Source: Candidatus Methanoperedens sp.
Lineage (GTDB): Archaea > Halobacteriota > Methanosarcinia > Methanosarcinales > Methanoperedenaceae
Direction of reading: 5' to 3'
Assembly: GCA_023249105.1 (NCBI GenBank)
Contig: JAHFDG010000015.1
Span: 1-64,000, forward strand
DNA length: 64,000 nucleotides
Part shown: piece after piece, positions 223-50,692 of the stretch
Layout: every line of letters begins with the position of its first letter
How positions within the stretch are numbered: the first letter of the stretch is position 1
Notes under the pieces: model-generated
Databases searched by the model: none
Seen by the model: the letters and a program-made list of their open reading frames with translations, nothing else
What the model was told of the DNA's origin: nothing
Made by a program: the position numbers and the translations under genes

Positions 223-849
223 ATGGACGTGGTAACAATGGCAAGCTTCGGAAAATGGGTAAAGGACACATTCAAAAAAGATCCTTTAAAAGTATCGACA
301 AATGAAATCAAGAGAGACCAGATTAAAATCGATCGTCTCGCAAGCATAAAACGAGATGAAATAGACGACCTGAATACAAAAATCGAAGATATAATAAAAA
401 AAGGCGTAGGACAGACCAAAGAGACAAAAATTTCACTCTCTCATGAACTCGGCGCAGTAAAAAACAAGAAAACTCAGCTTCAAAAGACCCATGAGGGTCT
501 GATGAGGCAAAAAAAGGCGCTGAATATGCTTGAATTCATGGTCGAACAGAAGAATACCGCACAGGTAAGTACAATTGCGAATCAGATATTCGACATGGAT
601 ATAGATAAAGTCTCTGACCTTGCAAGCGAAGTCGCTATCGAAGGAATGATGCAGGAAGACAAGATGAAAGCATTAGAAGGTGCCATGGTTGGCATATTCG
701 GTGAAGAAAGGCTATCCAAAGACACCGAAGAACTCCTGAATCAGTGGGATCAGCTCGAAGCCGGGCAGATCGATGTAGATAAATTCAAAGATACTGTTGA
801 GAAACAAAGTGAAAAAATGATTGTGAAAAGAGAGACAGAGTCAAGTTAA
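223..849 (+). CDS. ESCRT-III / Snf7-like (CdvB-like) protein
   Basis: 208 aa, basic N-terminus and acidic C-terminus, all-helical. Segment QLQKTHEGLMRQKKALNMLEFM...IFDMDIDKVSDLASEVAIEGMMQEDKMKALEG matches the Snf7 core pattern. Sits immediately upstream of a MIT-AAA Vps4-like gene. Confidence 0.5.
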   Translation: MDVVTMASFGKWVKDTFKKDPLKVSTNEIKRDQIKIDRLASIKRDEIDDLNTKIEDIIKKGVGQTKETKISLSHELGAVKNKKTQLQKTHEGLMRQKKALNMLEFMVEQKNTAQVSTIANQIFDMDIDKVSDLASEVAIEGMMQEDKMKALEGAMVGIFGEERLSKDTEELLNQWDQLEAGQIDVDKFKDTVEKQSEKMIVKRETESS

Positions 850-931: not shown

Positions 932-2725
932 ATGGGTTTAGCTGATGAATTTGAAGCAGTCCAGCGGAAAGATTTCATAAAGCAGAAAAACATTGCAGAA
1001 AAAGCGCTTGAAAAAGGAGATTATGATACAGCAAAAAAGGCTTTTAACGCTGCTGCAAATGCTGCGCAGAAAATAAGTAATGCGGTTTCAGGAAAAGAAT
1101 CTAAAGAAAAATGGCTTTTACTTTCAAAAAATTATTTCAATGCTTCCGAGCAATTAAATAGGGGGATTATACCTGAAAAAGAAAAACCCAAAGAATATGT
1201 ACGGCAACCCGTAATAACAGCCTCTCAATCTACTGAAGCCGGTCAGGGCGAAAAGGAAGAAAACTTCGAGACGTATATAGAAGAGAATTTAATAACTTCG
1301 AGTACAGTTACCTGGCAGGAAATCGCGGGTCTTAACAACACAAAAGAGACAATCAAAGAATCCGTAGTATTGAGCATCATTGAGGGGAAACCTGAGGCTA
1401 TAAAGCCCTGGAAAGGAATTCTTCTTTTCGGACCTCCGGGCACTGGGAAAACCCTGCTTGCAGCGGCAACAGCAGGTTCTTTGAAAGCCACATTTTTTAA
1501 TGTTAAAGTGAGCAATCTGTTATCTAAATACTTCGGTGAATCTTCGAAAATCATAACCGCTTTATACAATGTTGCCCGAAAAAGATCGCCTTCCATTATT
1601 TTCTTAGATGAATTTGATTCAATTGCGATGAGCCGCTCCACTGAAATTTCTGAAGCTTCACGCAGAGTACTATCCACATTACTTTCTGAATTAGATGGAT
1701 TGCAGGATAAGAAATCCTCACAATATATTTTAACAATGGCGGCTACAAATACGCCGTGGGATCTCGATGCAGCAGTGCTCAGTCGCTTCCAGAAACGAAT
1801 CTATGTCCCATTGCCCGATGTGCAAGCTGTTGAAGAAATGATAAAAATCAATACTCAGAAAAAAGGTATAGAATTTAAGGGGGACTTGAAACCAATAGCT
1901 TCAGATTGCGTTTCGAGATTATTTGCAGGTCGCGATGTCACCACGCTATGCAATGAGGCTATCTGGAACATGGTTCGTGAACAAAATACCGGGCTTAGCA
2001 CGCTTGCTGATAAGTCTCTTGATGCAATCAAGCAGTTCAAGCTAAAAGTGAGACCCGTGTTAGAATCAGATTTTAGAAAATCGTTTGAGATAGTAGAAAG
2101 CGCTGTGAAAGAGCGCGATGTAATAAAACATGAAACCTGGGCGCAGGAATACGGCGGATACGAGTCTGATAAAAAAAAACAACCGACGGTGATTAATAAA
2201 GAGCTATCCAGAGAAAAGAATAAAGAAGAATCTTTAAAACCTATTATTGATAGATTTCCTTCTTTATTAGAGGACTCGGATATTAAACCTGAGGTTCTTG
2301 GGGCTGCATTAAATATTGCAGTGGAGATAGCCAGTGAAGGAAGGGAGGGAAAGTCTGTGGGTACAGCATTTGTTATAGGCGACAGCGAAAATATAATGAA
2401 GAATTCAAGACAGCTTATTCTGAATCCATTTGCAGGGCATCCGCCAGAGGAGAGGATGATTACACTTCATGACCTGAAAGATAATATAAAAGAATTGGCG
2501 CAGCTTGATGGTGTTTTTGTGGTAAGGGGTGATGGTCTTATGGAAGCGGCAGGGAGGTATATAACAGTGGATGCCCATGGAGTTAGCCTGCCGAAAGGCT
2601 TTGGGACAAGGCATTCATCAGTGGCTGCTATCACGATGGTGACAAAGGCGGTGGGGATTGTGGTTTCGCAGAGCGGTGGAGGGATAAGGGTGATTAAGAG
2701 AGGGAAGATTGAGGTGAAAATCTGA
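932..2725 (+). CDS. Vps4/CdvC-like AAA+ ATPase with N-terminal MIT-like helical domain and C-terminal DAC (DisA_N)-like domain
   Basis: Walker A ILLFGPPGTGKT, Walker B IIFLDEFD, SRH region ATNTPWDLDAAVLSRF, helical N-terminus. The C-terminal ~170 aa carry DAC-like motifs (VGTAFVIGD..., LHDL...DGVFVV, GFGTRHSSVAA resembling DGA/GTRHRAA). Confidence 0.8.
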   Translation: MGLADEFEAVQRKDFIKQKNIAEKALEKGDYDTAKKAFNAAANAAQKISNAVSGKESKEKWLLLSKNYFNASEQLNRGIIPEKEKPKEYVRQPVITASQSTEAGQGEKEENFETYIEENLITSSTVTWQEIAGLNNTKETIKESVVLSIIEGKPEAIKPWKGILLFGPPGTGKTLLAAATAGSLKATFFNVKVSNLLSKYFGESSKIITALYNVARKRSPSIIFLDEFDSIAMSRSTEISEASRRVLSTLLSELDGLQDKKSSQYILTMAATNTPWDLDAAVLSRFQKRIYVPLPDVQAVEEMIKINTQKKGIEFKGDLKPIASDCVSRLFAGRDVTTLCNEAIWNMVREQNTGLSTLADKSLDAIKQFKLKVRPVLESDFRKSFEIVESAVKERDVIKHETWAQEYGGYESDKKKQPTVINKELSREKNKEESLKPIIDRFPSLLEDSDIKPEVLGAALNIAVEIASEGREGKSVGTAFVIGDSENIMKNSRQLILNPFAGHPPEERMITLHDLKDNIKELAQLDGVFVVRGDGLMEAAGRYITVDAHGVSLPKGFGTRHSSVAAITMVTKAVGIVVSQSGGGIRVIKRGKIEVKI

Positions 2726-2761: not shown

Positions 2762-5700
2762 ATGGATAACAAAAAAGTGGGAATTTCTAAGGATATTAAT
2801 AGGGTATTTCTAATAGTGTTTTTAGCAGGATTGACCCTTAGCATTTACATTCCAGCCGCAAGTGCGAATACAGTTAAGCAATTTAATGTTGAGGTAGGGG
2901 ATGCTTACTGGTATGATCTAACTGTGAATGCTTCAGAAACAGTTGATGTGAGTGTTTGGACTGATGGTGCACCGAATAATAATGATATTCTTATTACATC
3001 ATCTTATGACTCAATTGGAAATCAAATGAATGCCGGTACTGCGACTCATGGAAAAGCTACGTTTGGCTCGGGTTTTACTCCAACCACAACAAGCACTTTC
3101 AAAGTTAGAGTTTATCTCTATGATTCCGATCGTGTAGGAACACGCACCATAACTATGTCAAGTCCTCAATTCATATTTACAGCACCGCATTATATGGAAA
3201 CTGCAAGCAATATTGCCGAGGGAGATACTATCTGGTATTACTTAACGGTCAATTCTACAGGGATAGTTGGTATAAATGCCTGGACTGATGGCGGTGATCT
3301 GGAATATGATCGTTTTGAATTGTATCTATTCGATCCGATTGGAAAGGAAGTATATACAACGTCTGGATCCAACAAAGCATCGATTACTTATATTGCCAAA
3401 ACAACAGGTATTTTCAAAGTTCAGGTTCATATCAATAAAATCCGTGGTGGAAACCCACACAAGATTACCGTATCAAGTAATTATCCGTTAGGAGCTACTC
3501 TGCCGACATCCACTCCTACAATATCTGAAACATATACACCACAAAAGGCAACCCCACAGCCAAGTATCGTGATAGATGGCAATCCGCAGGACTGGGCTGG
3601 AATTAAGCCTATTATGACCGATCCCGAAGGTGATAGAACAGAAAATGTGCAGGGTTCGGACTTGAAATCATTATATGCCTTAAATGACAATGAATTTCTT
3701 TATTTAATGTTAGAAGTCTATGATAATCCAAACGGTTCAAAAGAAAAAGTTCAGTATGTTTTTGAAATAGCCAATAATACCGTATCTCCTTTTCTGAAAT
3801 GGGATTATGAGATAGGAGCGGAGGCACAGGGAAATCCCTGGCTATGGAACCTCACAGAGTATGATACACGTATCAATGACAAAGATCCGAATCCTTACGG
3901 TTTGGTCAGGGGTGTATCTGGCGTTGAGGCGTTGGGTAAAGATGTGTTTGAAATGAAGATACCGCTGCGTATAATAGGAAATCTAAAAAATATGATTATC
4001 CGCGCAAGAACACAGTTTCCAAATGGAAACGGGTTATATGATGATATGCCAGGCGCTAAGTTCATAACGAATCCTTCTCTAATTATTCCTGAAAAACAAA
4101 CACCTACTCCAACGCTCACTCCAATACCTACACATGGTGAAGAATTAAATCAAGAACGGCTTTCAGAAGGGCTGAAGTATCTTGCTTTTCCTGCATTGAC
4201 ATCATTAGCAGTATTAGGTATAGTCCTATTTTTTGAAAAAAGAGAAAAGAATAAGCGTAAGTTTAATGATGATTTGAGAACAAAGCATTGGTTTGGTTAT
4301 TATTCAGTGCTAATTGGTAACTTTATTATAGGTGCTGTTTTTGCACTCATTTCCTTTGCAGTCTTCTATAAAGAACTTCCAGTCAGTTATGATGCTGGAA
4401 AATTTTTCTTTACAATACCTATTTTTTATCTGTCAGCGTCCACTTTTATTTTAATTCGTGGGTTACTATTATCAAGACCAAATACAAAATTAAACGGTTT
4501 GCATTTTCTCATTTCTTTACTGATGGGTATATTTATGGTCTTTATTTTACTGACTGACCCTCAAAAGAGCCCGCCTTTCATTTTCCCGGTTTTATTTTTT
4601 ATTTCCTCAGGAATATCTCTCTGGTACGAAAGAGTTGCGATTTTCAGACCAGAATCTATTCAGGAATCGTTATCTATAGAAAAAGGAAGTGAAAAACCAA
4701 TTCTTGCGCCAGATATCAAGCGTGGATACTCCGTTCTACCTAATAACGACATTAAATTTGGCATAAGAGTGACGAATAATACGAGTTACACTATTACAGA
4801 TGTGGATACGATTCTGGATTATCAGAAGGCATCATCAATGCCATTATTCTCAATGAAAGATTCTGAAATTCAGCACCTTGGCAACATCGCCCCAAACACT
4901 GCGCGCACTGCAACCTACATACTCAAACCCCTCGGCTGCATCCATAACGAGCAAATAAACGCTCTTATCATCTGCAAAGACCACATGGGCAAAAAGCAAA
5001 CCCTTCACATGCACCCCAAGGAAGTTCACTGCGTCTGCCCATTCCTCAAGGAAAAGCCCATGAACGAAGGAGAGTACAGCCGCCTCGCAGCTAATAGCAA
5101 ATTCGTACAAGAAGGCATATCTTTCAAAGGCATAAGTGTTGAGGAACTGGCTAATTTCATGGGTGAGACATGCAGGCACATGCTATACAAGGTCAAAGAA
5201 TACGACATTGAGGGCAAGAAAGTCATTTATCTTTCAGGTGAGTCACTCGGAGAGAAGACATATTATCTCTTGACTGCGGTTATTCAGGAGTATAAAGACT
5301 TAACTCAGGTGGTTTTGAGGGCGTACTCGGACAAGAGCTACGGGTTGAACGGCTTCATGAACGAGATGGCTGACAGTATACGGCATCTTGTGGGGTCGGT
5401 TCGGAATGCTAAGGAGATTGGGATTATTGAAAATACGCAGGTGATCAATATCATTGATTCGGTGGTGCAGCGGACGAATTTTGAAATGGGCGCAGGTGGA
5501 AATACGCAAGTTAATATTAGGGATAGTGTGGTGCAAAGCACTACGATAAAAGGCGAGGAGAAGAGGGAAGCGAAAGCGAGAAATGAAACGGATAAGAAAG
5601 CGCCTGAACCTAAAGAAAGAATTGAACGTGAAGGACAGAAAGTAACGCCATTCGAAGAGATATGGAGTCGAATTATTGTTAATTCCAGAGAATTATTCCA

Positions 5701-5911
5701 TACAAAAACTGGATTAGAATTTACATACAAAGTAGAAGGTGATCGGTTCTATCCAAGCAGAACTGAATATGCAATATCAAAAAACGATTTTAAAACTGCT
5801 TATGAATTAGTTCCAATTGATGGTCCGGGTGAGATTAATGATATTGTTAGAGGACCTGCTTATGTTTGGGCAGTGCTGCATGATCAACGGATTTTAATGA
5901 AAGAATGGTGA
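2762..5911 (+). CDS. Large multidomain membrane protein: signal peptide, two PPC-like beta-sandwich domains, ~5 TM helices, cytoplasmic IKRGY-type domain
   Basis: N-terminal hydrophobic signal. Repeated W-Y-L-T-V-N...WTDG...D..L.L.D PPC-like units. Hydrophobic helices at aa ~470-620. The C-terminal 300 aa are paralogous to the N-terminus of 5983..7602. Confidence 0.6.
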   Translation: MDNKKVGISKDINRVFLIVFLAGLTLSIYIPAASANTVKQFNVEVGDAYWYDLTVNASETVDVSVWTDGAPNNNDILITSSYDSIGNQMNAGTATHGKATFGSGFTPTTTSTFKVRVYLYDSDRVGTRTITMSSPQFIFTAPHYMETASNIAEGDTIWYYLTVNSTGIVGINAWTDGGDLEYDRFELYLFDPIGKEVYTTSGSNKASITYIAKTTGIFKVQVHINKIRGGNPHKITVSSNYPLGATLPTSTPTISETYTPQKATPQPSIVIDGNPQDWAGIKPIMTDPEGDRTENVQGSDLKSLYALNDNEFLYLMLEVYDNPNGSKEKVQYVFEIANNTVSPFLKWDYEIGAEAQGNPWLWNLTEYDTRINDKDPNPYGLVRGVSGVEALGKDVFEMKIPLRIIGNLKNMIIRARTQFPNGNGLYDDMPGAKFITNPSLIIPEKQTPTPTLTPIPTHGEELNQERLSEGLKYLAFPALTSLAVLGIVLFFEKREKNKRKFNDDLRTKHWFGYYSVLIGNFIIGAVFALISFAVFYKELPVSYDAGKFFFTIPIFYLSASTFILIRGLLLSRPNTKLNGLHFLISLLMGIFMVFILLTDPQKSPPFIFPVLFFISSGISLWYERVAIFRPESIQESLSIEKGSEKPILAPDIKRGYSVLPNNDIKFGIRVTNNTSYTITDVDTILDYQKASSMPLFSMKDSEIQHLGNIAPNTARTATYILKPLGCIHNEQINALIICKDHMGKKQTLHMHPKEVHCVCPFLKEKPMNEGEYSRLAANSKFVQEGISFKGISVEELANFMGETCRHMLYKVKEYDIEGKKVIYLSGESLGEKTYYLLTAVIQEYKDLTQVVLRAYSDKSYGLNGFMNEMADSIRHLVGSVRNAKEIGIIENTQVINIIDSVVQRTNFEMGAGGNTQVNIRDSVVQSTTIKGEEKREAKARNETDKKAPEPKERIEREGQKVTPFEEIWSRIIVNSRELFHTKTGLEFTYKVEGDRFYPSRTEYAISKNDFKTAYELVPIDGPGEINDIVRGPAYVWAVLHDQRILMKEW

Positions 5912-5982
5912 TATGAAAGAAAGTATAACTGGTTAAAATATAGAAGGTTTTTTTATCAGCATATAACAATTGGGATGACGAA

Positions 5983-7602
5983 ATGGTGGATATCGAGATA
6001 AAACGCGGTTATGAAGTCCTGCCCGACAACAATGTCAGGTTTGGAATCAGAGTTGTCAATAACAGTGACTCCGCTATTTCTGATGTCGAAGTTATACTGG
6101 ATTACAGCGAATCTCTTTTTGAGCTTGGAGGCAATAAAATACAGAAACTCGGTAATATACCGCCCACCGTGCCACGCACAGCGAAATTCATACTGAAACC
6201 GCTTGGATGTATACATAAAGAAGAAATAGGCGCAACAGTACTTTACAAAGACCACCAGTGGAAGAAGCACACGCTAGAGATGCGCCCCAAAGAAGTGCAT
6301 TGTGTCTGTCCATTCTTGAGAGAAAAATCGATTACAAGGGCTGAGTTTCTGAATCTATCAAAATCTGGATATTCGGCAGATCGAGGTATTAATTTCGAGA
6401 ATATATCCATAGATAAGCTGATGGATTTTCTTTCTCATACCTGCAAAAACAGGCTGTATAAGGTGGATGAAATTCCTGTTGAGAATGGAAAAATACTCTA
6501 TCTTGCAGGAGAATCACTCGGAGAGAAGGCATATTATCTGCTCACTGCGATTGTGAAAGAATATGAGGGGCTTTCTCAGGTACTGCTACGTGCGAATTCG
6601 GATAAGAACTATGGTCTTATCGGATTTTTGAATGAAATTCTGGATAATCTGCACCACCTTGTGCAGACAGTGAATTCGGCACGGGAAATCGGGATTATCA
6701 AGAAAGAGCAGGTTATTAATATCATTGATTCTGTTGTGCAGAGGACGACTTTTGCTGGAGGAGAGGGTGCAGCGTCGGTGAACATCAGGGACAGTGTGGT
6801 GCAAAGCACGGAGTTTAAAGGGGATGAGGAGAGAAAGAGGCGCGAGGAGGAGAGGACACAGAGGGTTACTCAAACAGCTTCACCAGCACTTGTATCCATA
6901 CCAGCCCTATACCAGAAGACCATCACCAACTCCATCGGCATGGAATTCGTTCTGATACCTGCTGGTGAGTTTGACATGTCGAAATCAAATGAATCAGGTA
7001 GATCTGAAGGACCCGTTCATCGAGTAATAATATCAAATGGTTTCTACATGGGTAAATTCGAGGTCACCCAGAAGCAGTGGCGTGATATGATGGAAACAAA
7101 TCCTTCGAAATTCAAGGGCGACAATCGGCCTGTTGAACAGGTGTCATGGACCGATGCTCAGGAATTTATCAAAAAGCTCAATGAGAATGAAGGCACGAAT
7201 AAGTACCGTCTTCCTTCTGAAGCAGAATGGGAGTATGCGGCGCGAGCAGGCACAAAAACAAGATATTCCTTTGGCGACGATGAATCGATGTTCGGCGATT
7301 ATGCATGGTATTATAGTAATTCAGGTGGCAAAACTCATGAAGTCGGTCAGAAGAAGCCCAATCCATGGGGGTTGTACGATATGCACGGCAATGTCTGGGA
7401 ATGGGTTCAGGATACGTGGCACGGCAACTACAATGGTGCGCCTACAGATGGCAGCGCATGGGAGAAAGATGGCTCGGACCGCGTCGCTCGCGGCGGTAGC
7501 TGGCGCGGCAACGCCCGGAGCTGCCGGTCAGCGTTTCGAGACGACGGCGACCCTGGCGACCGCATCACCAGCCTCGGTTTCCGTCTTCTGAGGATTTCGT
7601 AA
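5983..7602 (+). CDS. Fusion of IKRGY-type domain with C-terminal FGE-sulfatase (SUMF1/formylglycine-generating enzyme family) domain
   Basis: The C-terminus has the FGE-sulfatase hallmarks: RVIISNGFYMGKFEVTQKQWRDMM, RLPSEAEWEYAARAG, GLYDMHGNVWEWVQD, RGGSW. The N-terminal 290 aa align with the C-terminus of 2762..5911 (IKRGYxVLP, GCIH, VHCVCPFL, DSVVQRT). Confidence 0.75.
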   Translation: MVDIEIKRGYEVLPDNNVRFGIRVVNNSDSAISDVEVILDYSESLFELGGNKIQKLGNIPPTVPRTAKFILKPLGCIHKEEIGATVLYKDHQWKKHTLEMRPKEVHCVCPFLREKSITRAEFLNLSKSGYSADRGINFENISIDKLMDFLSHTCKNRLYKVDEIPVENGKILYLAGESLGEKAYYLLTAIVKEYEGLSQVLLRANSDKNYGLIGFLNEILDNLHHLVQTVNSAREIGIIKKEQVINIIDSVVQRTTFAGGEGAASVNIRDSVVQSTEFKGDEERKRREEERTQRVTQTASPALVSIPALYQKTITNSIGMEFVLIPAGEFDMSKSNESGRSEGPVHRVIISNGFYMGKFEVTQKQWRDMMETNPSKFKGDNRPVEQVSWTDAQEFIKKLNENEGTNKYRLPSEAEWEYAARAGTKTRYSFGDDESMFGDYAWYYSNSGGKTHEVGQKKPNPWGLYDMHGNVWEWVQDTWHGNYNGAPTDGSAWEKDGSDRVARGGSWRGNARSCRSAFRDDGDPGDRITSLGFRLLRIS

Positions 7603-7873: not shown

Positions 7874-8428
7874 ATGGAAAAAATTGAAAGTCTTAAAGGT
7901 CAGGGTTTCTGGACAAAAGTAAAAAATGCAGTCGAACCCGTGGCTGAAAAGATTCTTGGTGCGGTCATCCCCGGATATGATTACCGTGCAAAGAAAAACA
8001 GATTGAATACCGACCAGGCAGTCAGAGAAAAGTTAGCCAGGGAGCTTGAAAAATCATATAATACGCTGAAAGAAGTCAGCGACCTTGCATACAAGGATGG
8101 CAAAAGGGATGTTGTGGAGCACATCAAGGATACATTGAACGCCATCGATTTAGTGAAAAAAGAGATAGAACACGCAGCATACGGATTGTCGCCCTTATTC
8201 ACTCAGGACAATGTTGATAGCAAAAACATTATCAGGATGATAGAGTTTGATGCAAAGCTTCTGGACGAACTGGTAGTAATAACAGAAGCCAGCGATATAG
8301 TGTATGATAACGTTCTTGAAGGAAAGACCTCGGATATTGTCCTTCAGGTCAGGAAAATGAAACGAAGCGTTGATAAAATGAGGAACATATTCTCTGACAG
8401 GAACGACTACCTGACAAATCTTGCATAG
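7874..8428 (+). CDS. Hypothetical helical protein
   Basis: 184-aa ORF, charged and helical. No recognisable motif. Confidence 0.35.
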   Translation: MEKIESLKGQGFWTKVKNAVEPVAEKILGAVIPGYDYRAKKNRLNTDQAVREKLARELEKSYNTLKEVSDLAYKDGKRDVVEHIKDTLNAIDLVKKEIEHAAYGLSPLFTQDNVDSKNIIRMIEFDAKLLDELVVITEASDIVYDNVLEGKTSDIVLQVRKMKRSVDKMRNIFSDRNDYLTNLA

Positions 8429-8436
8429 GTGAAACT

Positions 8437-9633
8437 ATGGAAAAAAAACCGTTGTTTTTCAAGGACGAAGGAGAAATGGGGGATGTGCTTTCACAGGCTA
8501 AAGGGCTTGCCAAAAAAGTACAGGTAATAAACAAGCACCTTGATACACAAATTAAGGAAATTAGTGAACTGAAAGAACAGGTAGAAGAAGAAAGCTATAG
8601 CCAGGTAATTAAAGAAAGTCTTGGGAAAAAGATCGATACCGCAAAAAGCAAGTTCTCATCCTTAATTTCAAACTGGAAAGGAAAAAAGGATCAGGTTGAA
8701 CAGGAAAAGGGAGAACTTCAAGCACAGCAGGCTGAGATTCTGTCTGAGAAACAGGAACTTGAAAAGAAACAAAACGAAGTTAATCCTGAACAAAAAGAAA
8801 TTCTCACAAAAGAATTACAGAATATTTCCAGATTAGAAGAAACAGTCAGCGAAAAACTGGTAAAACTTGAAAACACGAAGGAAGCAATCGAGAACATCCT
8901 GAATGAAAACAAGGAGAAGATACGTGAAAACATACTCACGAATGAAGAAGTCGAGTTCATAAAACTCAAGTATTTTAGTCTCATCCGTTCAAGACTCTCG
9001 ACAAAAGGTATAACAAGCCCTGTATCAAATAATTTTTATTATGAAAAGGACTGGAAATTGACGTTAATGGAGAATGAGATTGTTGCAAAGACGATGACGG
9101 GTCTTATCAAAAGTCATAACGATATCTATTTTGATATAACTTTTACAGCGCCGATGGACATTGAAGGGTATGTTTATAAAAAGAAAGGGATGGAAGTAAC
9201 AAATACGATTAAGAAATTCATTAATTCAGCAGATGGCAAATCCTATAATGCGCTTGTTCTAGCCTGTCCGACTGGCTGGGATGATGAAATAAAAAGCCAC
9301 GTTGCAACCATGGGTCATTCCAATGCAAGCATATACCTTGTTGACCTTGCAGAAAAACAGATGTTTTTCAATAGAAACGATGAAAAAACCATGAATTTTT
9401 CTGAGTGGTTTGCTCCACTTTCTATGGATGATGAAATTAATGATCTCGTAGAAAAAGTAAAACTTGATATTAAGAACGGAGATATTCAATTCAGGGCTGA
9501 TAAGGTGGTCGAGAAATATAAAGTCCCAAGAAAAATAGTCATATCAGCGTTCCATAAGATTGCGGATTCAAAGAATGCTGAGATAATCGATAGAAGTGAA
9601 GGTGCAAAGGATATAATATTATTAACGAGGTGA
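8437..9633 (+). CDS. Hypothetical coiled-coil protein with globular C-terminal domain
   Basis: The N-terminal 180 aa are E/K/Q-rich coiled coil. The C-terminal ~200 aa are globular and unassigned. Confidence 0.45.
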   Translation: MEKKPLFFKDEGEMGDVLSQAKGLAKKVQVINKHLDTQIKEISELKEQVEEESYSQVIKESLGKKIDTAKSKFSSLISNWKGKKDQVEQEKGELQAQQAEILSEKQELEKKQNEVNPEQKEILTKELQNISRLEETVSEKLVKLENTKEAIENILNENKEKIRENILTNEEVEFIKLKYFSLIRSRLSTKGITSPVSNNFYYEKDWKLTLMENEIVAKTMTGLIKSHNDIYFDITFTAPMDIEGYVYKKKGMEVTNTIKKFINSADGKSYNALVLACPTGWDDEIKSHVATMGHSNASIYLVDLAEKQMFFNRNDEKTMNFSEWFAPLSMDDEINDLVEKVKLDIKNGDIQFRADKVVEKYKVPRKIVISAFHKIADSKNAEIIDRSEGAKDIILLTR

Positions 9634-15031: not shown

Positions 15032-15349
15032 ATGAAAACAAGGAAAAAATTCACACGAGAATTTAAAATATCGATTCTTCGTGAACTTGAGAACGGAAAA
15101 AGTGCAGCACAGGTATGCCGGGAAAACGGCATTCATCCCCCAATGCTATCAAAATGGAAACGGGAATACAAAGAAAATCCCGGGACAGCATTCAGCGGCA
15201 ATGGCGATATCAGCAAACCGGAAGCAAAATTAGCAGAATCAGAACGTCTCATAGGTCAGTTGTATGCTGAAAATGCATTTCTAAAAAAAGTATTGAGCAG
15301 CTTAGAGACCAAGCTGCAGGAGCATCAAAAACAGAGAGAAAGGAATTGA
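15032..15349 (+). CDS. IS3-family transposase OrfA (HTH)
   Basis: MKTRKKFTREFKISILRELENGKSAAQVCRENGIHPPMLSKWKREY is the classic IS3/IS911 OrfA helix-turn-helix. A leucine-zipper-like tail follows. Confidence 0.85.
   Translation: MKTRKKFTREFKISILRELENGKSAAQVCRENGIHPPMLSKWKREYKENPGTAFSGNGDISKPEAKLAESERLIGQLYAENAFLKKVLSSLETKLQEHQKQRERN
15283..15289 (+). promoter_or_regulatory. Putative -1 programmed frameshift slippery heptamer A AAA AAA (OrfA to OrfAB fusion)
   Basis: A-run at 15283-15290 in the OrfA frame. The -1 frame is open from here into OrfB (KKSIEQLRDQAAGASKTERKELMYM...). Confidence 0.5.
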
Positions 15350-16221
15350 TGTATATGACAATCCAGAACATGCATAAAGAGACCAATCAAATAAGCATAA
15401 GCAGAGGATGCTCAGCTCTCGGGGTCAACAGAAGCGTATACAGCAAATGGATCAGGCAGGACCAGACACATTACTCCGATCCTGAAGAGATGAAACTCAA
15501 GAACGAGATACAGGCGATTGCAATAGATTTTCCCAGATATGGATACAGACGGATAACAATCGAATTGCATCGACGTGGATTTGAAGTAAATCATAAGGTC
15601 GTTTACGAACTTATGAGAATAGACAACCTGCTGTGCATAAAAAAGCAATTTGTCCCAAAGACAACTGATTCTGAACACAACCTGCCAGTCTATCCTAATC
15701 TGGCGAGAGATATTGTGGTAACTGGCATTAATCAACTATGGGCGGCTGATATCACATATATACGCATGGTGCGGGAATTCATATATCTCGCGGTTATAAT
15801 CGATGTATTCAGCAGGAAGTGCATTGGATGGAAATTGGGCAGGGATATTGATGCAAAACTCGCTCTGGCAGCTCTGAATATGGCTTTAGCGGATCGCAAG
15901 GATTTGGGTATTTCGAACCTTATTCATCATTCTGACCAGGGAGTTCAATACGCCTCATGGGAGTATGTTGATAGACTCAAAGAAAACGGTATCAAGATCA
16001 GCATGAGCAGAAGGGGAAATCCATATGATAATGCTATCGCTGAGAGCTTCATTAAGACTTTGAAATACGAGGAGGTATATCTCTGGGAATATGAAACGTT
16101 TGATGAAGCCCACAAGAATATCAAGAAATTCCTGGAAGTGGTATATAATAAAAAGCGGGTTCATTCATCTATCGGGTATGTCACTCCTGAAGAATTTGAA
16201 AAATCTGAAGGGAGGTTTTAA
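15346..16221 (+). CDS. IS3-family transposase OrfB (rve integrase/DDE catalytic core)
   Basis: WAADITYI...HSDQGVQYAS...NPYDNAIAESFIKTLKYE are the DDE motifs D...D...E(35). It overlaps OrfA in the -1 frame. Confidence 0.9.
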   Translation: MMYMTIQNMHKETNQISISRGCSALGVNRSVYSKWIRQDQTHYSDPEEMKLKNEIQAIAIDFPRYGYRRITIELHRRGFEVNHKVVYELMRIDNLLCIKKQFVPKTTDSEHNLPVYPNLARDIVVTGINQLWAADITYIRMVREFIYLAVIIDVFSRKCIGWKLGRDIDAKLALAALNMALADRKDLGISNLIHHSDQGVQYASWEYVDRLKENGIKISMSRRGNPYDNAIAESFIKTLKYEEVYLWEYETFDEAHKNIKKFLEVVYNKKRVHSSIGYVTPEEFEKSEGRF

Positions 16222-16260: not shown

Positions 16261-19200
16261 TCAGTCCAAGTATTTCTTGATCCTTTTAATAATTTCTTCG
16301 TTATTGAACATCGCTCTTGTCTTATCAAGCAATATGTTCCCAAATAATAGCGATGCACCTTCTTTACTTTTATCTTTGGTTTCTATTTGTATCAATTTTT
16401 GTGAAACTGCCCAGAGATCAGCAATAGGCGAAACATTGTAGTTCTGGATACTGCCTGTTATCTCCCGGTCCACAAGTTGAAGTTTGTTGAGTACATCTTT
16501 TTTGTGTTTATCTATGAATTCTTCGGGGTTGGTCATGTATAAGTTGATCATTTGATTATAATCTGCCATATTTATCGACACTTCTACTTTTCCGGACGCT
16601 TTAGAGCGCATGTTAATGAAATCCGAGATATTTTCTTCATTAGTCAGTGTGGTTTCCATTTCCTTGGTAATTTCCTCAGCCACAAAATAGAGATTATAAA
16701 TCTTTTCTTTTGAGGGATCAGAATCTAAATACCCTGGTGTAGTGGCTATAGTTTCAATGAGCCTTATGATCTCAATACAGATGCCCTTATAATATTCCGG
16801 GATGCACATATCGCATGAAGAAGATAGTTTTTTCATAGATTCATGCAATGATTTTTTGATATTATCCCCAATAGCTTTCAGTTCCTCATCAAGGTTTATT
16901 TCGGGCTTTAAGTAGATTTTCTTGTTCAGCTTTATATCGTTCACATCCAGAGACAGTACTTCAGTTTTATAATATTCCTTTTGAACCGATATGTCATGGC
17001 TGCCAAGCGATATGTCTGGGATCACCACATCTCCTTTCTCGTCGGTCATAAAGCTCATCTCGCCAAGTTTAACTTCAGCTCCAGAGAGTGGTCTTTCATT
17101 AGCAAATTCATACACTGAAATTTGCATTGTTGCTTTACCCCCGAGTTCGATGAGAATCCTATCATTTTTATTAACCTCTAATTCTCGTTTTTCTTCTTCG
17201 AACCCTTTAGAATTAATTCTCAGTTTGTACCATCCTTCTCTAACCTTTCCAAAAATCACCTTGCCGTCAATATCACTTACCCTTTCAATAAGCTCTCCGT
17301 CAGCGGATTCGAGAATTACTGTTGCTTTCCGGATTGGAGTTTTATTATACATGTTTTTTACTTCCAAAATCAAAGTGTAGGTATTTTCAATTTTTCTTGG
17401 TGGTTCTGGAACTGTAATCTCTTTTTTGCCAGGCTTTGATTTTGGCTTATCTACCTTGAGTGCAGTATCTACCCCCCGGGTATCTTTAGGTATGACTTTT
17501 TTGGGTTTGAAAAAGTGAAAAACCACAAGAAGAAAGACTACTAATACGACCAATAATATGACCAGAAAAGTTAGGGACTTATTTGAAGATGAGTCGTTCG
17601 AATAGTTCAGAGTATAAGTAGTTGGAATGCTGGGCGTAGAGGTTGATGTAATTTCATATCCACCTGAAAGAAGAGAACTTTCGCCGCTTATGGATTTTTC
17701 AATCAAAGGATAGAACCTGAGATTTGAGCCATCGTTTGCAACTTTAAATTTCAACCCGCCCATTAAATCGACAGTTCCAGAATTTAATAGGATTCTATTC
17801 TTATTAACTAAAACAACTGAGTCGCTATTAGAGCCTGTGACTTCGAATACTCCAAATCTGTCTCCGAGCCTAATATTACCAGCAGAATCAGAAGTCAGAA
17901 AAGTATATCTTAACTGCACCATATCTGAGGTTGCGCCCGCAAAAACACTATCTAAATAAGTGACCAGTATCGGCACAGATCCTTCATCGCCAAAATTAGC
18001 TTCGTATGTATATATTTGACCCTGTGCTAATACCTTATCATCCAGTTTTTTACCGTTTTTACTAAATACAAGCCATGCTTGCCGTGGAGATGCTTTGGCA
18101 TCGATTGATTGTGCTGTGATCGTATATCCGTATCCTATATCCCATGTTTCGCCGACTGTGAGCGATTTCTTTTCAGATGTTGACGCACCTTGTTCTAGCA
18201 GTATTTTTGCAAGTTTATTACTTTTTCCATTAATTGCAATGTATTTGTCTCCCTGCCAGCCAACTGCATTATAATAATTTTTGCCACCAACAGATATGCC
18301 CTTGGCTGATGTAACTTTATAGTTTACAGGAGCCGCTGAGGTTCGATAAGTAAGACTATTAGTTTCAATAAAATTATTGTTAGCATTAAATGAGCTAAGA
18401 GTAAGGGTCTCTGTGCTCTGGTCACTATCAAGATCGTACCATAACCCTGCAAAGTTATTAGCATTCCATGAGGCAGATCCCTTCGCCAGTTCACCTCTGA
18501 TTGTGTATTTATCCGATTCCTGTAATCTGATTACAGGAAAATATGTAAGGCGATCGCTATCAGCAACCATAAACTTAATATTACCCATCAAATCAACGCT
18601 CGCTCCTTTTAGAAGCTGTACTCCCACGTCATTTATCAATGCTAAATTATTATCATTTGCCGTAGAGACTTTGAATATTCCGTATTTATCACCTGACTGG
18701 ATTGTTAGGACGCTTTTTGAAACCAACCAGGAATATTTGAATTCAACAACATCACTTGTAGTACCAGAATTGATATTATTTATGTATGTTACAAAAATCG
18801 GTACGTTTGTTTCTCCTGCAAGGTATCCGCTGTAACTGTATATTTGCCCTTTAGCGATTACCTTATCATCCAGTTTTATGCCATCTTTACCGAGTACGAT
18901 CCATGCTTGCGGTGGAGATGCCTTAGCATCGATTGATTGTGCTGTAAGCGTGTAGCCGTCTCCCATGTCCCATGTTTGACCGACCCCAAGAACTTTGCTT
19001 TCCTGCGACTCTTGCTCTAAAACCAGCTTTGAGAGTTTATTTGCTTTACCATTAATAGCGATATACTTTTGTCCCTGCCATCCGATAGCGTAATAAGAAG
19101 TCTTTCCATCCACAGGCAGCCCTGTTGCAGAGTATACTCTAAATAGAATAGCCGTATCGAAAGTGGTGTATTGTAAGTTACCCTGCTCTATAAAGCGATT

Positions 19201-19413
19201 GTAATCATTTATTGAACCACGGACAACTAAAGACTCTGTACTTTTGTCAGCTTCGATATCGTACCAGAAACCTGCAAAGCTCTGGGCATTCCATGAAGCC
19301 TGTCCTGTGGCTTTAGAACCCCTGATTTCAATGCCTGCTGCTGCAATATTGGTTAAAAGAATTATTAATGCTGCGATTAAAATTAATTGTTTTATTTTAA
19401 GTGATTTAATCAT
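16261..19413 (-). CDS. S-layer-type protein with tandem DUF1608-like domains, TM helix and cytoplasmic CarbopepD_reg-like domains plus conserved C-module
   Basis: Signal peptide. Two ~280-aa repeats (SWNAxxFAGxWYD...AIGWQGxKYIAINGKxNKL...GxTWDxGxGYTxTAQSIDAKASP) are typical of Methanosarcina S-layer DUF1608. A TM segment LTFLVILLVVLVVFLLVVF follows. Cytoplasmic beta-sandwich repeats and a C-module with CDMCIPEYYKGIC and PIADLW complete the protein. Confidence 0.65.
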   Translation of the reverse strand: MIKSLKIKQLILIAALIILLTNIAAAGIEIRGSKATGQASWNAQSFAGFWYDIEADKSTESLVVRGSINDYNRFIEQGNLQYTTFDTAILFRVYSATGLPVDGKTSYYAIGWQGQKYIAINGKANKLSKLVLEQESQESKVLGVGQTWDMGDGYTLTAQSIDAKASPPQAWIVLGKDGIKLDDKVIAKGQIYSYSGYLAGETNVPIFVTYINNINSGTTSDVVEFKYSWLVSKSVLTIQSGDKYGIFKVSTANDNNLALINDVGVQLLKGASVDLMGNIKFMVADSDRLTYFPVIRLQESDKYTIRGELAKGSASWNANNFAGLWYDLDSDQSTETLTLSSFNANNNFIETNSLTYRTSAAPVNYKVTSAKGISVGGKNYYNAVGWQGDKYIAINGKSNKLAKILLEQGASTSEKKSLTVGETWDIGYGYTITAQSIDAKASPRQAWLVFSKNGKKLDDKVLAQGQIYTYEANFGDEGSVPILVTYLDSVFAGATSDMVQLRYTFLTSDSAGNIRLGDRFGVFEVTGSNSDSVVLVNKNRILLNSGTVDLMGGLKFKVANDGSNLRFYPLIEKSISGESSLLSGGYEITSTSTPSIPTTYTLNYSNDSSSNKSLTFLVILLVVLVVFLLVVFHFFKPKKVIPKDTRGVDTALKVDKPKSKPGKKEITVPEPPRKIENTYTLILEVKNMYNKTPIRKATVILESADGELIERVSDIDGKVIFGKVREGWYKLRINSKGFEEEKRELEVNKNDRILIELGGKATMQISVYEFANERPLSGAEVKLGEMSFMTDEKGDVVIPDISLGSHDISVQKEYYKTEVLSLDVNDIKLNKKIYLKPEINLDEELKAIGDNIKKSLHESMKKLSSSCDMCIPEYYKGICIEIIRLIETIATTPGYLDSDPSKEKIYNLYFVAEEITKEMETTLTNEENISDFINMRSKASGKVEVSINMADYNQMINLYMTNPEEFIDKHKKDVLNKLQLVDREITGSIQNYNVSPIADLWAVSQKLIQIETKDKSKEGASLLFGNILLDKTRAMFNNEEIIKRIKKYLD

Positions 19414-21114: not shown

Positions 21115-23175
21115 TTAAAACATGCTGATCGCCAGGCGCGCTTTCACCTCTTCTTTATTATACATTTCCCTTACATGGTCAAGCAATTTATCGTCGATGA
21201 ATAGCATAACGCCCCGTTTCTTTGCATCTGCTTCATTCATACTGTTCTCCAGCAATTTTTGCGCCACCCTCCAGAGATCAGCCACAGGCTGTATAGTAAG
21301 AGTGCCGCTTAATTGCGTCAGTTCATTATCTATCTCATTGAGCTTGTTACCAACATCCCTGAAATGGTTCTTGTGATAATTCGCGGTGTCGCGTACAAGT
21401 TCGCTGAACTTTTCAGGTGAATAGTCAGATACAGTCAGATCATCAACAGGAGGCAGATTCTGGATTGAAAAGTAAAAGTCCACATTGCTTTTTTCCCTCA
21501 TGATTCTTGAAATTTCATCCGCTAAAAATTCTGTTGTGCTAAGAGTATATTTTATTATTTCGTCTGGACTTGTTTTTGCACCAAGAAATTCAACAGGTCT
21601 TTTTATTATTTTGTCTACTAATTGCGTGGGTTTTTCTCCTACCTTTTTAAAGAATAATGGAATGCACGTATCGTATGTAGAAACTTCTTTAAAACCAGTA
21701 TTGAGTTTCTCATTGATTTTACTGATCGAGTTGAGAAATTCCGGCTTTGGTTGATAGTTGAATCTGAGGTCAAGCGTCACAGCACATGTTCTGTTTTCAA
21801 TGATAGTTACCTGTTTTTCGACCGGATCGTACAGTGAGGGAATGCTTGTTTTAAGGCGGACAATATAATCTCCAATAGACAATTTCTGGTTTATTCTACC
21901 GTTGTCATCTGTAGCAAAATCCATCGCCTGAGAAGCGCCTTTTTTCATCAAGCTAACTGGGGTTCCAGCAAAGGGTTTACCAGTTGCTTGCTCAGAGATT
22001 GTTATATCAAGCGTACCTGCTTTTTTGAAAAGCTGGATTCTCTTTGTAGTTTCTGAACTGCTTAAGGGAATATTCTTTTGTTCAACGAATTCCCCGCCCG
22101 AACTGCGTATAGAAACGACATATTGTTTATTTTTGGAAATGGTAAACTTCGCAATCCCTGAAGCATCTGTAACACCAGGGCTCCCGTTTGCATCCACCAG
22201 AGAAGTAGTCTCTTTAACACTCACGTTGATTCCGCTGATAGGGTTACCAGCTTCGTCCACTACCTCTATCTGTACTGGCTGCCGTTTGATCAGGGATATT
22301 TTGATTCTTTCATCGTCGGAAGGGATGTTTACTTCTCTTGAAGTGGATTCATAATTCCCACCACCGTCAACTTCAATTTTGTAGGTTCCCTTAGGAAGTT
22401 CTAAGTGATATGTCCCGTCAAACTCAATGCGGGCAAGGTAAGGCATACCACTTTTATTAACCGCTCTGACTTTTGCATCTGTGATTCTTACAAATCCTGA
22501 TTCATCGAGTAAGTCAATTTGCAATTTATTGGTTAACGTTGCAATAGAAGGGCTCACGAGCCTTTGTTCAGATTCGTTCTCATCAGATGTTTTAATTCTT
22601 ATGAGACCTAGTTTATATAATCCCCAAAATACTCCAGCGAGACCTAATAAAAACAAAGCTAAATTAATATAAACATTGGAAAACAACTTAGATAGTATAC
22701 CCTGCGGAGGGGTTTCTGTAGGTGCGGTCGTAATTTCTGGAGTGGTAGCCGCTGGTGTTGTTGGTGCTGGAGTCGTGGGTGATGGGGTGGGTGCAGGTGT
22801 CGGAGTGGAAGTCGGAGCAGGGGGATTTTTATTGATGACTGTAATTTTAGTTGCTAAATTATCACTTATATTAGTTACCGTTACATCAAAACTTTTTCTT
22901 AATGTTAGATTTTTTAGGGATTCTGGATATAAATTTGAATTAGATATATTTAGCACTAATTTTCCATCATCCTTAATTGTTTCATTGAATGAAGACTCTG
23001 GAAAATCTAGTCTATAAGTAGCTCCTTTACTGAAATTTAGATAAGATAATGTTAAGTTATCTCCGTTTAGTTCGCCTGTGGGTTCCGTAGCAGCAGTGGT
23101 GGTAATCGAAAACGAAAACATCACCAAAAATACAAAAAATATCCTCAATCCGTTCATAGATGACCCCGTTATCAT
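21115..23175 (-). CDS. Envelope-spanning protein: signal peptide, extracellular domain, Pro/Thr linker, TM, 3 CarbopepD_reg-like domains, divergent C-module
   Basis: PPAPTSTPTPAPTPSPTTPAPTTPAATTPEITTAPTETPP linker and a TM helix LALFLLGLAGVFWGLY. The C-terminus has TYDTCIPLFFKKVG...PVADLWRVAQKL, homologous to the C-module of the two downstream genes. Confidence 0.6.
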   Translation of the reverse strand: MITGSSMNGLRIFFVFLVMFSFSITTTAATEPTGELNGDNLTLSYLNFSKGATYRLDFPESSFNETIKDDGKLVLNISNSNLYPESLKNLTLRKSFDVTVTNISDNLATKITVINKNPPAPTSTPTPAPTPSPTTPAPTTPAATTPEITTAPTETPPQGILSKLFSNVYINLALFLLGLAGVFWGLYKLGLIRIKTSDENESEQRLVSPSIATLTNKLQIDLLDESGFVRITDAKVRAVNKSGMPYLARIEFDGTYHLELPKGTYKIEVDGGGNYESTSREVNIPSDDERIKISLIKRQPVQIEVVDEAGNPISGINVSVKETTSLVDANGSPGVTDASGIAKFTISKNKQYVVSIRSSGGEFVEQKNIPLSSSETTKRIQLFKKAGTLDITISEQATGKPFAGTPVSLMKKGASQAMDFATDDNGRINQKLSIGDYIVRLKTSIPSLYDPVEKQVTIIENRTCAVTLDLRFNYQPKPEFLNSISKINEKLNTGFKEVSTYDTCIPLFFKKVGEKPTQLVDKIIKRPVEFLGAKTSPDEIIKYTLSTTEFLADEISRIMREKSNVDFYFSIQNLPPVDDLTVSDYSPEKFSELVRDTANYHKNHFRDVGNKLNEIDNELTQLSGTLTIQPVADLWRVAQKLLENSMNEADAKKRGVMLFIDDKLLDHVREMYNKEEVKARLAISMF

Positions 23176-50042: not shown

Positions 50043-50056
50043 ATCTACTGTAATAA

Positions 50057-50692
50057 TTAACTCCCTTTCTTCATAGCCTCTTCAACTTGTTTTAATCCAT
50101 TTTCAATTTTTAAGTCCATTTTTGATTCCCCTGCTGCCGCTTCTCCTTCCATTGTTTTGATTATATTATTAAGATTCATATCGAGTTCAGAAGAGTTAAG
50201 CACTTTTTCACTTGTCATGTCCAGGGATGTAGAGAGAGCCAGATCCACCTGCTCAGCCTTCATCATAGCTTTATCAAGTTCTACTTGCATTCCTGCAAGA
50301 TCTTTAACATCAATGCCTTCAATAATAGAACTGCTCATATCTTTTGCAAAAGCTACAAATTCACTTGACATATGCACGGCTTCACGCTGGATTTTGATTC
50401 CTTCCATATGCAGTAAGAGTTTTTTTCCCTTCCTTATTTTATCGTTCATCGTGAAATATCCAGCCGCAAATCTTTTCAGCATTTCTTCATCTCCAATTTT
50501 TGCGGCTTCTACTCCCTGATCCCAATATTTTTTCTTAATGTTGTCACAGTTATCAATATAGTTGTTGACAACAGATTTTGCTTTCCTATAAGAGATTTCT
50601 CGTTCAATCTCTACTTCTTGTTTAGATTTTTTGTGAAAGAGTCCCATGGACTTATTGTTTAATCGATAAGGTTTATAAAAGTTTGGAATCAC
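50057..50692 (-). CDS. ESCRT-III / Snf7-like protein
   Basis: 211 aa. Core LLHMEGIKIQREAVHMSSEFVAFAKDMSSSIIEGIDVKDLAGMQVELDKAMMKAEQVD fits the Snf7 pattern. Directly upstream of Vps4-like. Confidence 0.55.
   Translation of the reverse strand: MIPNFYKPYRLNNKSMGLFHKKSKQEVEIEREISYRKAKSVVNNYIDNCDNIKKKYWDQGVEAAKIGDEEMLKRFAAGYFTMNDKIRKGKKLLLHMEGIKIQREAVHMSSEFVAFAKDMSSSIIEGIDVKDLAGMQVELDKAMMKAEQVDLALSTSLDMTSEKVLNSSELDMNLNNIIKTMEGEAAAGESKMDLKIENGLKQVEEAMKKGS

Follow-up and report, generated by a model that had tools for sequence, protein, structure and literature searches.

For a diadenylate cyclase (DAC) domain, synthesis of cyclic di-AMP (c-di-AMP) requires a second domain opposite it, both loaded with ATP, as established for DisA and CdaA, and Vps4-type ATPases remain mostly monomeric or dimeric until hexamers form on ESCRT-III polymers, to which they are recruited by MIT-MIM contacts. 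How diadenylate cyclases are controlled is the chief question still facing c-di-AMP research. Most of their N-terminal 'sensor' domains respond to unknown signals. Bacteria use the messenger to control potassium and osmolyte homeostasis, and in Haloferax it governs cell volume (PMC6741144 for Haloferax). Archaeal Vps4 proteins are recognised by an N-terminal MIT domain and an ESCRT-III gene in the neighbourhood, and in euryarchaeal systems the ESCRT-III gene lies upstream of Vps4 (Makarova 2024, PMC10936438). Here, a gene at positions 932 to 2725 of a 64,000-nucleotide stretch of Candidatus Methanoperedens sp. (assembly GCA_023249105.1, contig JAHFDG010000015.1, positions 1 to 64,000 of the forward strand; hereafter the window) was analysed, which an earlier note made from the sequence alone had described as a Vps4/CdvC-like MIT-AAA ATPase fused to a C-terminal DAC-like domain with altered catalytic motifs. 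Judged by its domain matches, the gene encodes a genuine MIT-like/AAA/Vps4_C ATPase joined to a genuine DAC-fold domain, and the fusion is real and conserved in several genomes of the Methanoperedens lineage.

The fusion gene and its cyclase domain

The gene is a single continuous open reading frame (ORF) of 597 amino acids (aa) on the plus strand, with an ATG start and no stop or frameshift between the domains in the ORF list of the window. The order of the encoded domains is an MIT-like three-helix bundle, an AAA+ module of the Vps4/katanin clade with Vps4_C, a linker of ~45 aa and a DAC (DisA_N) domain. Please refer to Table 1 for the boundaries. Pfam scans identified AAA at residues 163-294 (6e-38), Vps4_C at residues 361-408 (22.4 bits against a cutoff of 21.3) and DAC/DisA_N (PF02457) at residues 467-592 (1.7e-16; 60.4 bits against a cutoff of 27). 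The NCBIfam model for CdvC (NF041006) matched at 7.8e-52 with 176.4 bits, under its equivalog cutoff of 650, and the model for DacZ (NF041371) matched residues 444-594 at 1.1e-30 with 106.9 bits, under its equivalog cutoff of 430, the only portion of that model matched being its DAC part (positions 115-262). In the AlphaFold2 (AF2) model, which has a predicted local distance difference test score (pLDDT) of 76, the bundle spans residues 3-76 and is followed by disorder at 83-107, the AAA module, a second disordered segment at 410-425 (pLDDT <50), a helix covering 421-440 and, from 453 to 597, a compact alpha/beta domain.

The strings on which the earlier note had based a DAC fold for the last ~170 aa were located in the translation (VGTAFVIGD at 476-484, LHDL at 512-515, DGVFVV at 526-531 and GFGTRHSSVAA at 556-566). 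In a PDB search with the last 177 residues, every significant match was a CdaA-type diadenylate cyclase (the best at 1.9e-5), the single non-cyclase row standing at E 0.42, and a profile of the DAC subfamily matched CdaA (1.7e-10), DisA (0.0025) and, beyond these, only 2fb5, a DAC-fold chain deposited as a hypothetical membrane-spanning protein. The fold assignment is upheld by these matches and by the Pfam score, and no unrelated fold aligned better in the PDB searches.

The changes of DGA to DGV and of RHR to RHS are present exactly as the earlier note described them. Alignment with CdaA revealed a further difference that had gone unremarked, in that S222-E223-E224 of CdaA, of which we take E224 to be a metal ligand, corresponds to S579-Q580-S581 of the fusion. 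To place these residues in context, 1,231 DAC relatives were found among 1.84 billion cluster representatives and 141 of the best 150 were aligned for a motif census. D526 and G527 are near-invariant (139 and 140 of the 141, respectively), G558, R560 and H561 are invariant in all 141, and S579 is retained in 138. Position 528, a valine here and the alanine of DGA in CdaA, is A in 103 representatives, V in 20, G in 6 and I in 3, while position 562, a serine here and the second arginine of RHR in CdaA, is A in 33, S in 24, V in 15 and R in 12. Position 580, a glutamine here (CdaA E223), is E in 67 and Q in 56, and position 581, a serine here (CdaA E224), is S in 128 and T in 12. D526-G527 is invariant in all 10 fusion orthologues, and in all 120 closest DAC relatives listed G[TSC]RH is followed by S, N or A, never by R. 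The fusion thus has neither the alanine at the third position of DGA nor the second arginine of RHR (V528, S562), both of which vary across the whole subfamily. It also differs from a full-length DacZ equivalog, which includes a PK_C-like N-terminal sensor domain; none of 10 acidic DacZ-like representatives exceeded the DacZ equivalog cutoff. By these counts DGV, RHS and SQS fall within the normal range of a large, DacZ-like subfamily of archaeal DAC domains. The substitutions are real, but a private degeneration of the motifs was rejected on the basis of the census and of a ratio of nonsynonymous to synonymous substitution (dN/dS) of 0.10 for the DAC domain.

PanS proteins, which are active minimal DACs, carry DGF and GGR and contact their product through D71, G72, G107 and R108 only (bioRxiv 10.64898/2026.08.10.743927); since an active enzyme has phenylalanine there, alanine at the third position of DGA is not required for activity. 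The description of Haloferax DacZ stresses the conservation of DGA (Braun 2019, PMC6741144), and a text search of that paper for 'RHR' gave no occurrence. Taken together, the motif changes do not speak for inactivation, and they leave room for a quantitative or metal-preference difference.

The strongest rival reading is a DAC domain without catalytic activity that serves as a sensor of c-di-AMP or ATP and allosterically switches the Vps4-like ATPase, so that the messenger would control remodelling and not the other way round. V528 in place of alanine, S562 in place of arginine and Q580/S581 in place of E223/E224 all depart from the CdaA/DisA consensus as such a sensor would, Methanoperedens has separate DAC paralogues able to supply c-di-AMP, and a change of RHR to AAA in M. 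tuberculosis DisA abolishes ATP binding (PMC3328451). However, that mutant altered all three residues together, and the substitutions seen here are typical of the whole subfamily, including its TrkH-, PAS- and receiver-linked output architectures. The D, G, G and R that contact phosphate and ribose in active DACs show essentially no variation, PanS works despite DGF and GGR, and degenerate sensors usually lose the catalytic aspartate, which is kept in every fusion orthologue. A sensor is therefore unlikely, and the option of an inactive cyclase that the earlier note had left standing loses ground. The fusion DAC is probably best read as an active cyclase, because the core D, G, R and H are near-invariant, the third positions are free to vary and PanS is active with DGF and GGR.

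The ATPase and its ESCRT-like locus

The fused ATPase carries a Walker A motif (GPPGTGKT), a Walker B motif (IIFLDEFD) and pore loop 1 (SKYFGESSK), and the best structural matches of the fusion model in Foldseek were katanin, Vps4, spastin and FIGL1 (30-36% identity, E 1e-13 to 1e-17). Pfam, the pore loop and Foldseek agree on one meiotic-clade AAA+ module carrying a Vps4_C helix. Its second region of homology (residues 282-290, 1775..1801) reads AVLSRF..R with a single arginine, where eukaryotic Vps4 and katanin carry RRR; it is conserved in all 120 listed homologues, so it is a feature of the euryarchaeal family beyond the fusion. Among the close homologues are proteins of Thermococcus and Methanocaldococcus that carry the annotation cell-division protein, and the 'Main' Vps4 clade spans the orders of both genera (Makarova 2024, PMC10936438). 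Because the score of 176.4 bits stands against an equivalog cutoff of 650, the ATPase is by sequence a relative, not an orthologue, of crenarchaeal CdvC.

At the N-terminus, AF2 predicts helices at residues 3-28, 31-51 and 55-76 with a pLDDT of ~90. An hhalign comparison found the N-terminus of the ATPase family homologous to that of a group of small MIT-like/DAC proteins (described below) with 90% probability. Direct Pfam matches were sub-threshold (KATNA1_MIT, E 0.0036; MIT, 0.012), and a PDB profile search with the ATPase N-terminus returned TPR-like noise only and no significant MIT match. Taken together, the AAA match of 6e-38, the above-cutoff Vps4_C and the predicted three-helix bundle support the Vps4/CdvC-like AAA identity claimed in the earlier note, with an N-terminus that is MIT-like.

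A 203-aa protein is encoded directly upstream of the fusion. It also precedes an unfused orthologue of the ATPase, where it is 68% identical, and it has 93 homologues annotated as 'hypothetical'. In Foldseek, CdvB2 ranked first for this protein with a non-significant E of 0.38, and it is regarded as a candidate ESCRT-III-like subunit by its position and helical-hairpin shape only. Downstream, the 1049-aa and 539-aa proteins share a domain of ~280 aa (56% identical over 282 aa, IKRGY.VLP...NIRDSVVQST, no Pfam match), and in an orthologous locus (L008) a single 704-aa FGE-sulfatase protein follows the fusion.

The Meth_adaptin type of ESCRT locus comprises a 399-aa coiled-coil/winged-helix (wH) protein, an SPFH component bearing both zinc ribbon and coiled coil, putative immunoglobulin (Ig)/propeller cargo modules and ProX (PMC10936438). 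The 399-aa comparison gene, from the Methanosalsum zhilinae locus in Table S2 of Makarova 2024, resembles the 398-aa protein of the window in size but, unlike it, lies directly downstream of the ATPase. An SPFH protein with zinc ribbon is present in the window locus. The Meth_adaptin locus also has adaptin-appendage (Ig + TBP) proteins, and CARDB/Ig domains occur in the 1105-aa protein of the window. No ProX was seen in general Pfam scans of the window locus proteins. In its predicted composition the locus resembles the euryarchaeal ESCRT systems, and the gene lies in an ESCRT-like operon.

Table 1. Features of the fusion gene and its operon, with positions in the window
Feature	Coordinates	Strand	Evidence
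Helical-hairpin protein, 203 aa (alternative ATG at 223 gives 208 aa), candidate divergent ESCRT-III-like subunit	238..849	+	conserved upstream partner
Fusion gene, 597 aa (MIT-like, AAA+, Vps4_C, linker, DAC)	932..2725	+	ORF, Pfam, NCBIfam, AF2, Foldseek
MIT-like N-terminal three-helix bundle, aa 1-80	932..1171	+	AF2 helices, hhalign
AAA+ ATPase module and Vps4_C helix, aa 119-408	1286..2155	+	Pfam, motifs, Foldseek
Inter-domain linker, aa 409-449	2156..2278	+	ends of unfused orthologues, AF2 pLDDT
DAC/DisA_N domain, aa 450-597 (D526-G527-V528, G558-T-R560-H561-S562, S579-Q-S581)	2279..2722	+	Pfam, NCBIfam, PDB
1049-aa multi-pass membrane protein and 539-aa FGE-sulfatase protein, probably locus-specific cargo/accessory	2762..7602	+	Pfam
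184-aa and 398-aa proteins, no Pfam match	7874..9633 (398-aa: 8437..9633)	+	Pfam scan
Double zinc-ribbon and SPFH/Band_7 protein, 618 aa	9640..11496	+	Zn_Ribbon_1 1.3e-15, DZR 2e-12, Band_7 1.6e-8
Beta-propeller (PQQ/WD40-like) and CARDB/Ig-like protein, 1105 aa	11640..14957	+	PQQ_2 7.5e-12, CARDB 1.9e-9, Ig-like

It is also conceivable that the ATPase works outside an ESCRT system, as a generic MIT-less or katanin-like unfoldase that the DAC domain uses as one more N-terminal input. The CdvC score of 176 against a cutoff of 650, the lack of a significant MIT match at the ATPase N-terminus, the lack of a Snf7/PspA sequence match for the 203-aa partner and the ranking of katanin above Vps4 by Foldseek are what such a protein would give. 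However, Vps4_C exceeds its Pfam cutoff, the N-terminus is a predicted three-helix bundle related to MIT-like domains, and the helical-hairpin gene of ~200 aa found upstream is conserved, its highest fold match being CdvB2, though without significance. Furthermore, the SPFH-zinc-ribbon and propeller/Ig neighbours match euryarchaeal ESCRT loci, and the cell-division-annotated homologues of Thermococcus and Methanocaldococcus belong to orders within the 'Main' Vps4 clade, both as published in Makarova 2024. We regard an ATPase unconnected with ESCRT as improbable, somewhat more so than the sensor, and retain the reading of a Vps4-like ATPase in an ESCRT-like operon.

Elsewhere in the window, an rve-family integrase/transposase (HTH_21 + rve + rve_3; 15346..16221, plus strand) separates the plus-strand ESCRT-like operon from a minus-strand envelope/tubulin block. 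In the latter, two divergent genes of the tubulin/FtsZ family (23172..24542 and 28282..29583, both minus strand; Pfam Tubulin 2e-11 and 4e-13) sit among CarboxypepD_reg/PEGA/Ig-like proteins and an S-layer protein (16261..19413); they recall the CetZ-like gene carried by Halo_adaptin ESCRT loci (Makarova 2024). A 467-aa Schlafen/AlbA_2 + HATPase_c_4 + winged-helix protein (59168..60571, plus strand) is unrelated to the fusion.

Other DAC attachments and conservation of the fusion

The inputs that precede a C-terminal DAC domain in this subfamily include PAS, receiver-PAS, TrkH (a potassium transporter), DUF7345 with transmembrane (TM) helices, PTS_EIIA with DacZ_P and an MIT-like bundle. The last of these defines the commonest close relatives of the fusion DAC, which are MIT-like/DAC proteins of ~250 aa from Methanoperedens and relatives (e.g. 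P0178, P0207, P0211). Across its full length, Pfam MIT matches their N-terminus at 1e-5 to 1e-6, slightly sub-threshold, and so do the MIT structures of Sulfolobus and human VPS4 at E 0.009-0.1. They resemble the fusion in a DAC domain that is 57-64% identical, in DG[AV]/GTRHSS/SQS motifs and in the homologous N-terminal MIT-like bundle; unlike the fusion, they have no AAA+ module and lie in housekeeping neighbourhoods (aspartate kinase, Ham1; in one case MscL). In that case (locus L001, 8001..10454) the neighbours of a 249-aa MIT-like/DAC gene are DUF1015 and a convergent mscL, with an ammonium transporter and P-II upstream, an arrangement that parallels the dacZ-mscS2 operon of Haloferax.

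Two further proteins, P0263 (553 aa) and P0279 (559 aa), are fusions of AAA, AAA_lid_3 and DAC. Like the fusion of the window they join an AAA+ ATPase to a C-terminal DAC domain of the same subfamily. However, their ATPase belongs to a paralogous family (RPGRF-type second region of homology, AAA_lid_3) and both junction and linker differ, which makes this an independent fusion event. Their ATPase is 45% identical to a second ATPase of the window (48966..50042) and clearly less close to the fused one, identity to the whole fusion being 38% overall, with the DAC domain contributing much of it. As the two are only 45% identical to each other, this second fusion family is old. At the locus of P0263 (L019, 1..8508, Logan SRR22315505), the fusion gene (5387-7048) is flanked by a HEAT-repeat protein and stands divergently to an operon whose products have 213, 199 and 387 aa; the longest of these is an unfused Vps4-like ATPase that shares 53% identity with the fused one of the window, and the 213-aa product is a weak homologue of the 203-aa partner.

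The second ATPase of the window forms part of a further Vps4-like pair on the minus strand (48966..50692), in which a 211-aa protein without Pfam match (50057..50692) precedes an unfused 358-aa AAA + AAA_lid_3 + Vps4_C ATPase. This pair is homologous to a 200-aa and 356-aa pair beside the unfused orthologue in locus L002 (47% and 59% identity). It is followed on the same strand by genes for large proteins of 200, 639, 505, 961 (Big_13), 537, 766 (PQQ_2), 365 and 364 aa. A tblastn search found no further DAC gene in the window.

The module also appears to be mobile. P0241 (DUF7345-TM helices-DAC) is 78.5% identical to residues 407-597 of the fusion, including the 'GGYE.DK.KQ' junction and the last residues of the ATPase, which suggests that the DAC module moved with its linker out of a Vps4 fusion. 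In P0121 and P0122 (267-268 aa) a DAC module of the fusion clade lies behind an unannotated helical N-terminus. By sequence comparison, DAC is thus found joined to one or other of two paralogous ATPases from ESCRT-like loci, and also to an MIT-like domain with no ATPase. Because of the independent fusion to a paralogous ATPase and the attachment to an MIT-like domain alone, a real functional coupling is much likelier than a one-off accident.

These relatives also bear on the product. The DAC domain might be active yet make something else, such as a mixed cyclic dinucleotide (PanS makes cUA), with a locus-specific and possibly defensive function. DAC domains are able to make 3'3'-cUA, and the third residue of DGA is bulkier here (V), as it is in PanS (F). 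However, the specificity of PanS derives from an extended flexible lid loop, and the DGV-to-GTRH segment of the fusion is just 2 residues longer than that of CdaA. The closest relatives include TrkH-DAC proteins and MIT-DAC proteins in housekeeping contexts, one of them near MscL, as is typical of osmotic c-di-AMP signalling, and no defence genes flank the fusion gene in Pfam scans of the neighbouring window genes. There is only a slight chance that the domain is active with a product other than c-di-AMP.

The fused ORF was recovered in ~10 clusters at 90% identity (76-100% identical, 596-622 aa), all of the Methanoperedens lineage, from NCBI, ENA, JGI and Logan assemblies, so the same fusion is found in orthologues as the earlier note had asked. 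Two of 185,579 GTDB species genomes carry it, namely Ca. Methanoperedens nitroreducens BE2012_43_12 and a metagenome-assembled genome of a 'Methanobacteriota archaeon'. The gene order around the fusion is identical in loci from independent samples. Methanosarcinales and Methanoperedens-type archaea commonly carry unfused orthologues of ~406-412 aa (58-74% identical), which end in ...WA.EYGG or ...EYGSG, and from precisely that point the fusion continues with EYGGYESDKKKQ. Identity among the fusion orthologues is 84-98% in the AAA core, 77-91% in the DAC domain and 46-73% in the linker, which is the least conserved segment. Between the window and the L008 orthologue, dN/dS is 0.10 for DAC, 0.06 for AAA and 0.37 for the linker (dS ~0.8-1.0); both enzymatic modules retain the residues central to catalysis and are under strong purifying selection.

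An artefact of assembly or gene calling, or a recent neutral read-through without function, would accord with a junction exactly at the natural C-terminus of the ATPase and with the narrow distribution over 2 GTDB species genomes, but is refuted by the uninterrupted ORF shared by ~10 diverged clusters, which come from independent assemblies with short and with long contigs, by the dS and the DAC dN/dS just given, and by the existence of the second, independent AAA-DAC family. An extrachromosomal (Borg or plasmid) origin was unsupported, the L008 locus being chromosomal because genes for ribosomal proteins S24e and S27, Spt4 and an Rpb7-like RNA-polymerase subunit lie within 10 kb. The picture suggested is of a fusion narrow in distribution yet recurrent, selected and mechanistically suggestive.

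Proposed function and comparison with known systems

On balance, the protein is best taken as a bifunctional enzyme in which an MIT-like domain and an AAA+ translocase of the Vps4/katanin clade are joined through a flexible linker of ~45 residues to a competent DacZ-like cyclase, a reading we hold to be somewhat better than even. In such an enzyme, the AAA+ ring would hold six DAC domains at its C-terminal face on tethers of ~45 residues; their local concentration would become very high only on assembly, and cyclase activity would depend on oligomerisation of the ATPase. Oligomerisation would take place on the substrate polymer, to which the ATPase would be recruited via its MIT domain. The assembly or disassembly of an ESCRT-III-like polymer at the membrane (vesicle formation, repair, stress) would then produce a pulse of c-di-AMP, the output of the cyclase reporting engagement of the ATPase with the polymer.

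An osmotic or membrane-stress signalling role is, we infer, the most coherent one, given the TrkH-DAC fusions, the MIT-DAC gene near mscL and the ProX of Meth_adaptin loci. In the widest form of this proposal, c-di-AMP synthesis in Methanoperedens and related archaea would be gated by assembly of a Vps4-like ring on an ESCRT-III-like polymer, the DAC domain would be delivered via either paralogous ATPase or just an MIT-like domain, and remodelling or repair of the membrane would directly emit a messenger that resets potassium and osmolyte transport. We advance this wider form tentatively and with more doubt than belief.

Several observations weigh against these proposals. A Pfam scan of 46 members of the 203-aa partner family and a PDB profile search gave no match, to ESCRT-III or otherwise, and no ESCRT-like genes were found beside the MIT-DAC genes in three neighbourhoods. 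The N-terminal bundle of the ATPase appears MIT-like from the structural model and the 90% hhalign probability, with no significant family match. In the DAC domain, the position of CdaA E224 is taken by S581, with valine at the third position of DGA and Q/S at 580/581. Gating of the cyclase by oligomerisation is purely our inference. The link between second-messenger signalling and membranes that the earlier note proposed is plausible, given the ESCRT-like locus, while its 'membrane scission' goes further than a partner without significant ESCRT-III match would carry it.

Publicly, the fusion is annotated only as 'AAA family ATPase' (as in the orthologue MDP3105450.1 [Candidatus Methanoperedens sp.]) or 'transitional endoplasmic reticulum ATPase'. 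Full-text searches found no literature linking DAC with MIT or Vps4 in prokaryotes (c-di-AMP and Vps4 co-occurred in STING/ESCRT papers only), with the census of 22 DAC families by Galperin 2023 and He et al. 2020 lying outside the coverage, and a text search of Makarova 2024 (PMC10936438) gave no occurrence of 'diadenylate'. Both halves belong to known families, and in agreement with the earlier note, which knew of no such combination, their joining may be a new architecture as far as the literature searched extends. Were the proposal true, it would add a new input pathway for c-di-AMP and the first enzymatic or signalling output on a Vps4-type machine. Because the trigger of the input module is here understood in outline, as oligomerisation on an ESCRT-III-type polymer, a path from membrane remodelling or stress to c-di-AMP is directly testable with purified proteins. 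The fusion also gives a way of probing the function of euryarchaeal ESCRT-like loci, which are still poorly understood.

With Vps4/CdvC and the euryarchaeal Vps4-like proteins of arCOG01307 (PMC10936438), the fusion shares the predicted three-helix MIT-like bundle, the single AAA+ module of the meiotic clade, the SK[WY]xGE pore loop and Vps4_C, and with the euryarchaeal Vps4 loci of the same paper a gene for a helical-hairpin protein of ~200 aa directly upstream together with SPFH-zinc-ribbon and propeller/Ig proteins. It differs in scoring far under the CdvC equivalog cutoff, in a partner not recognisable by sequence as Snf7, CdvB or PspA, and in its additional C-terminal enzymatic DAC domain, of which the archaeal Vps4 proteins described in the accessible part of Makarova 2024 have none.

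With DacZ/CdaZ (Haloferax volcanii DacZ, PMC6741144; M. jannaschii CdaZ) it shares the DAC subfamily (NF041371, 1.1e-30), a C-terminal DAC domain behind a regulatory module and, presumably, c-di-AMP as product. Unlike these enzymes, it lacks the PK_C-like DacZ_N/DacZ_P sensor domain, and its N-terminal input is a complete AAA+ machine, whereas that of DacZ is a small ligand-binding domain. DisA, in which DAC is combined with a DNA-scanning HhH module, is more distant (profile E 0.0025) and differs in its N-terminal DAC domain, octameric assembly, DNA substrate and canonical DGA and RHR. However, it is like the proposed fusion in deriving DAC activity from a higher-order oligomer in which DAC domains face each other, and in reporting the state of a macromolecular substrate.

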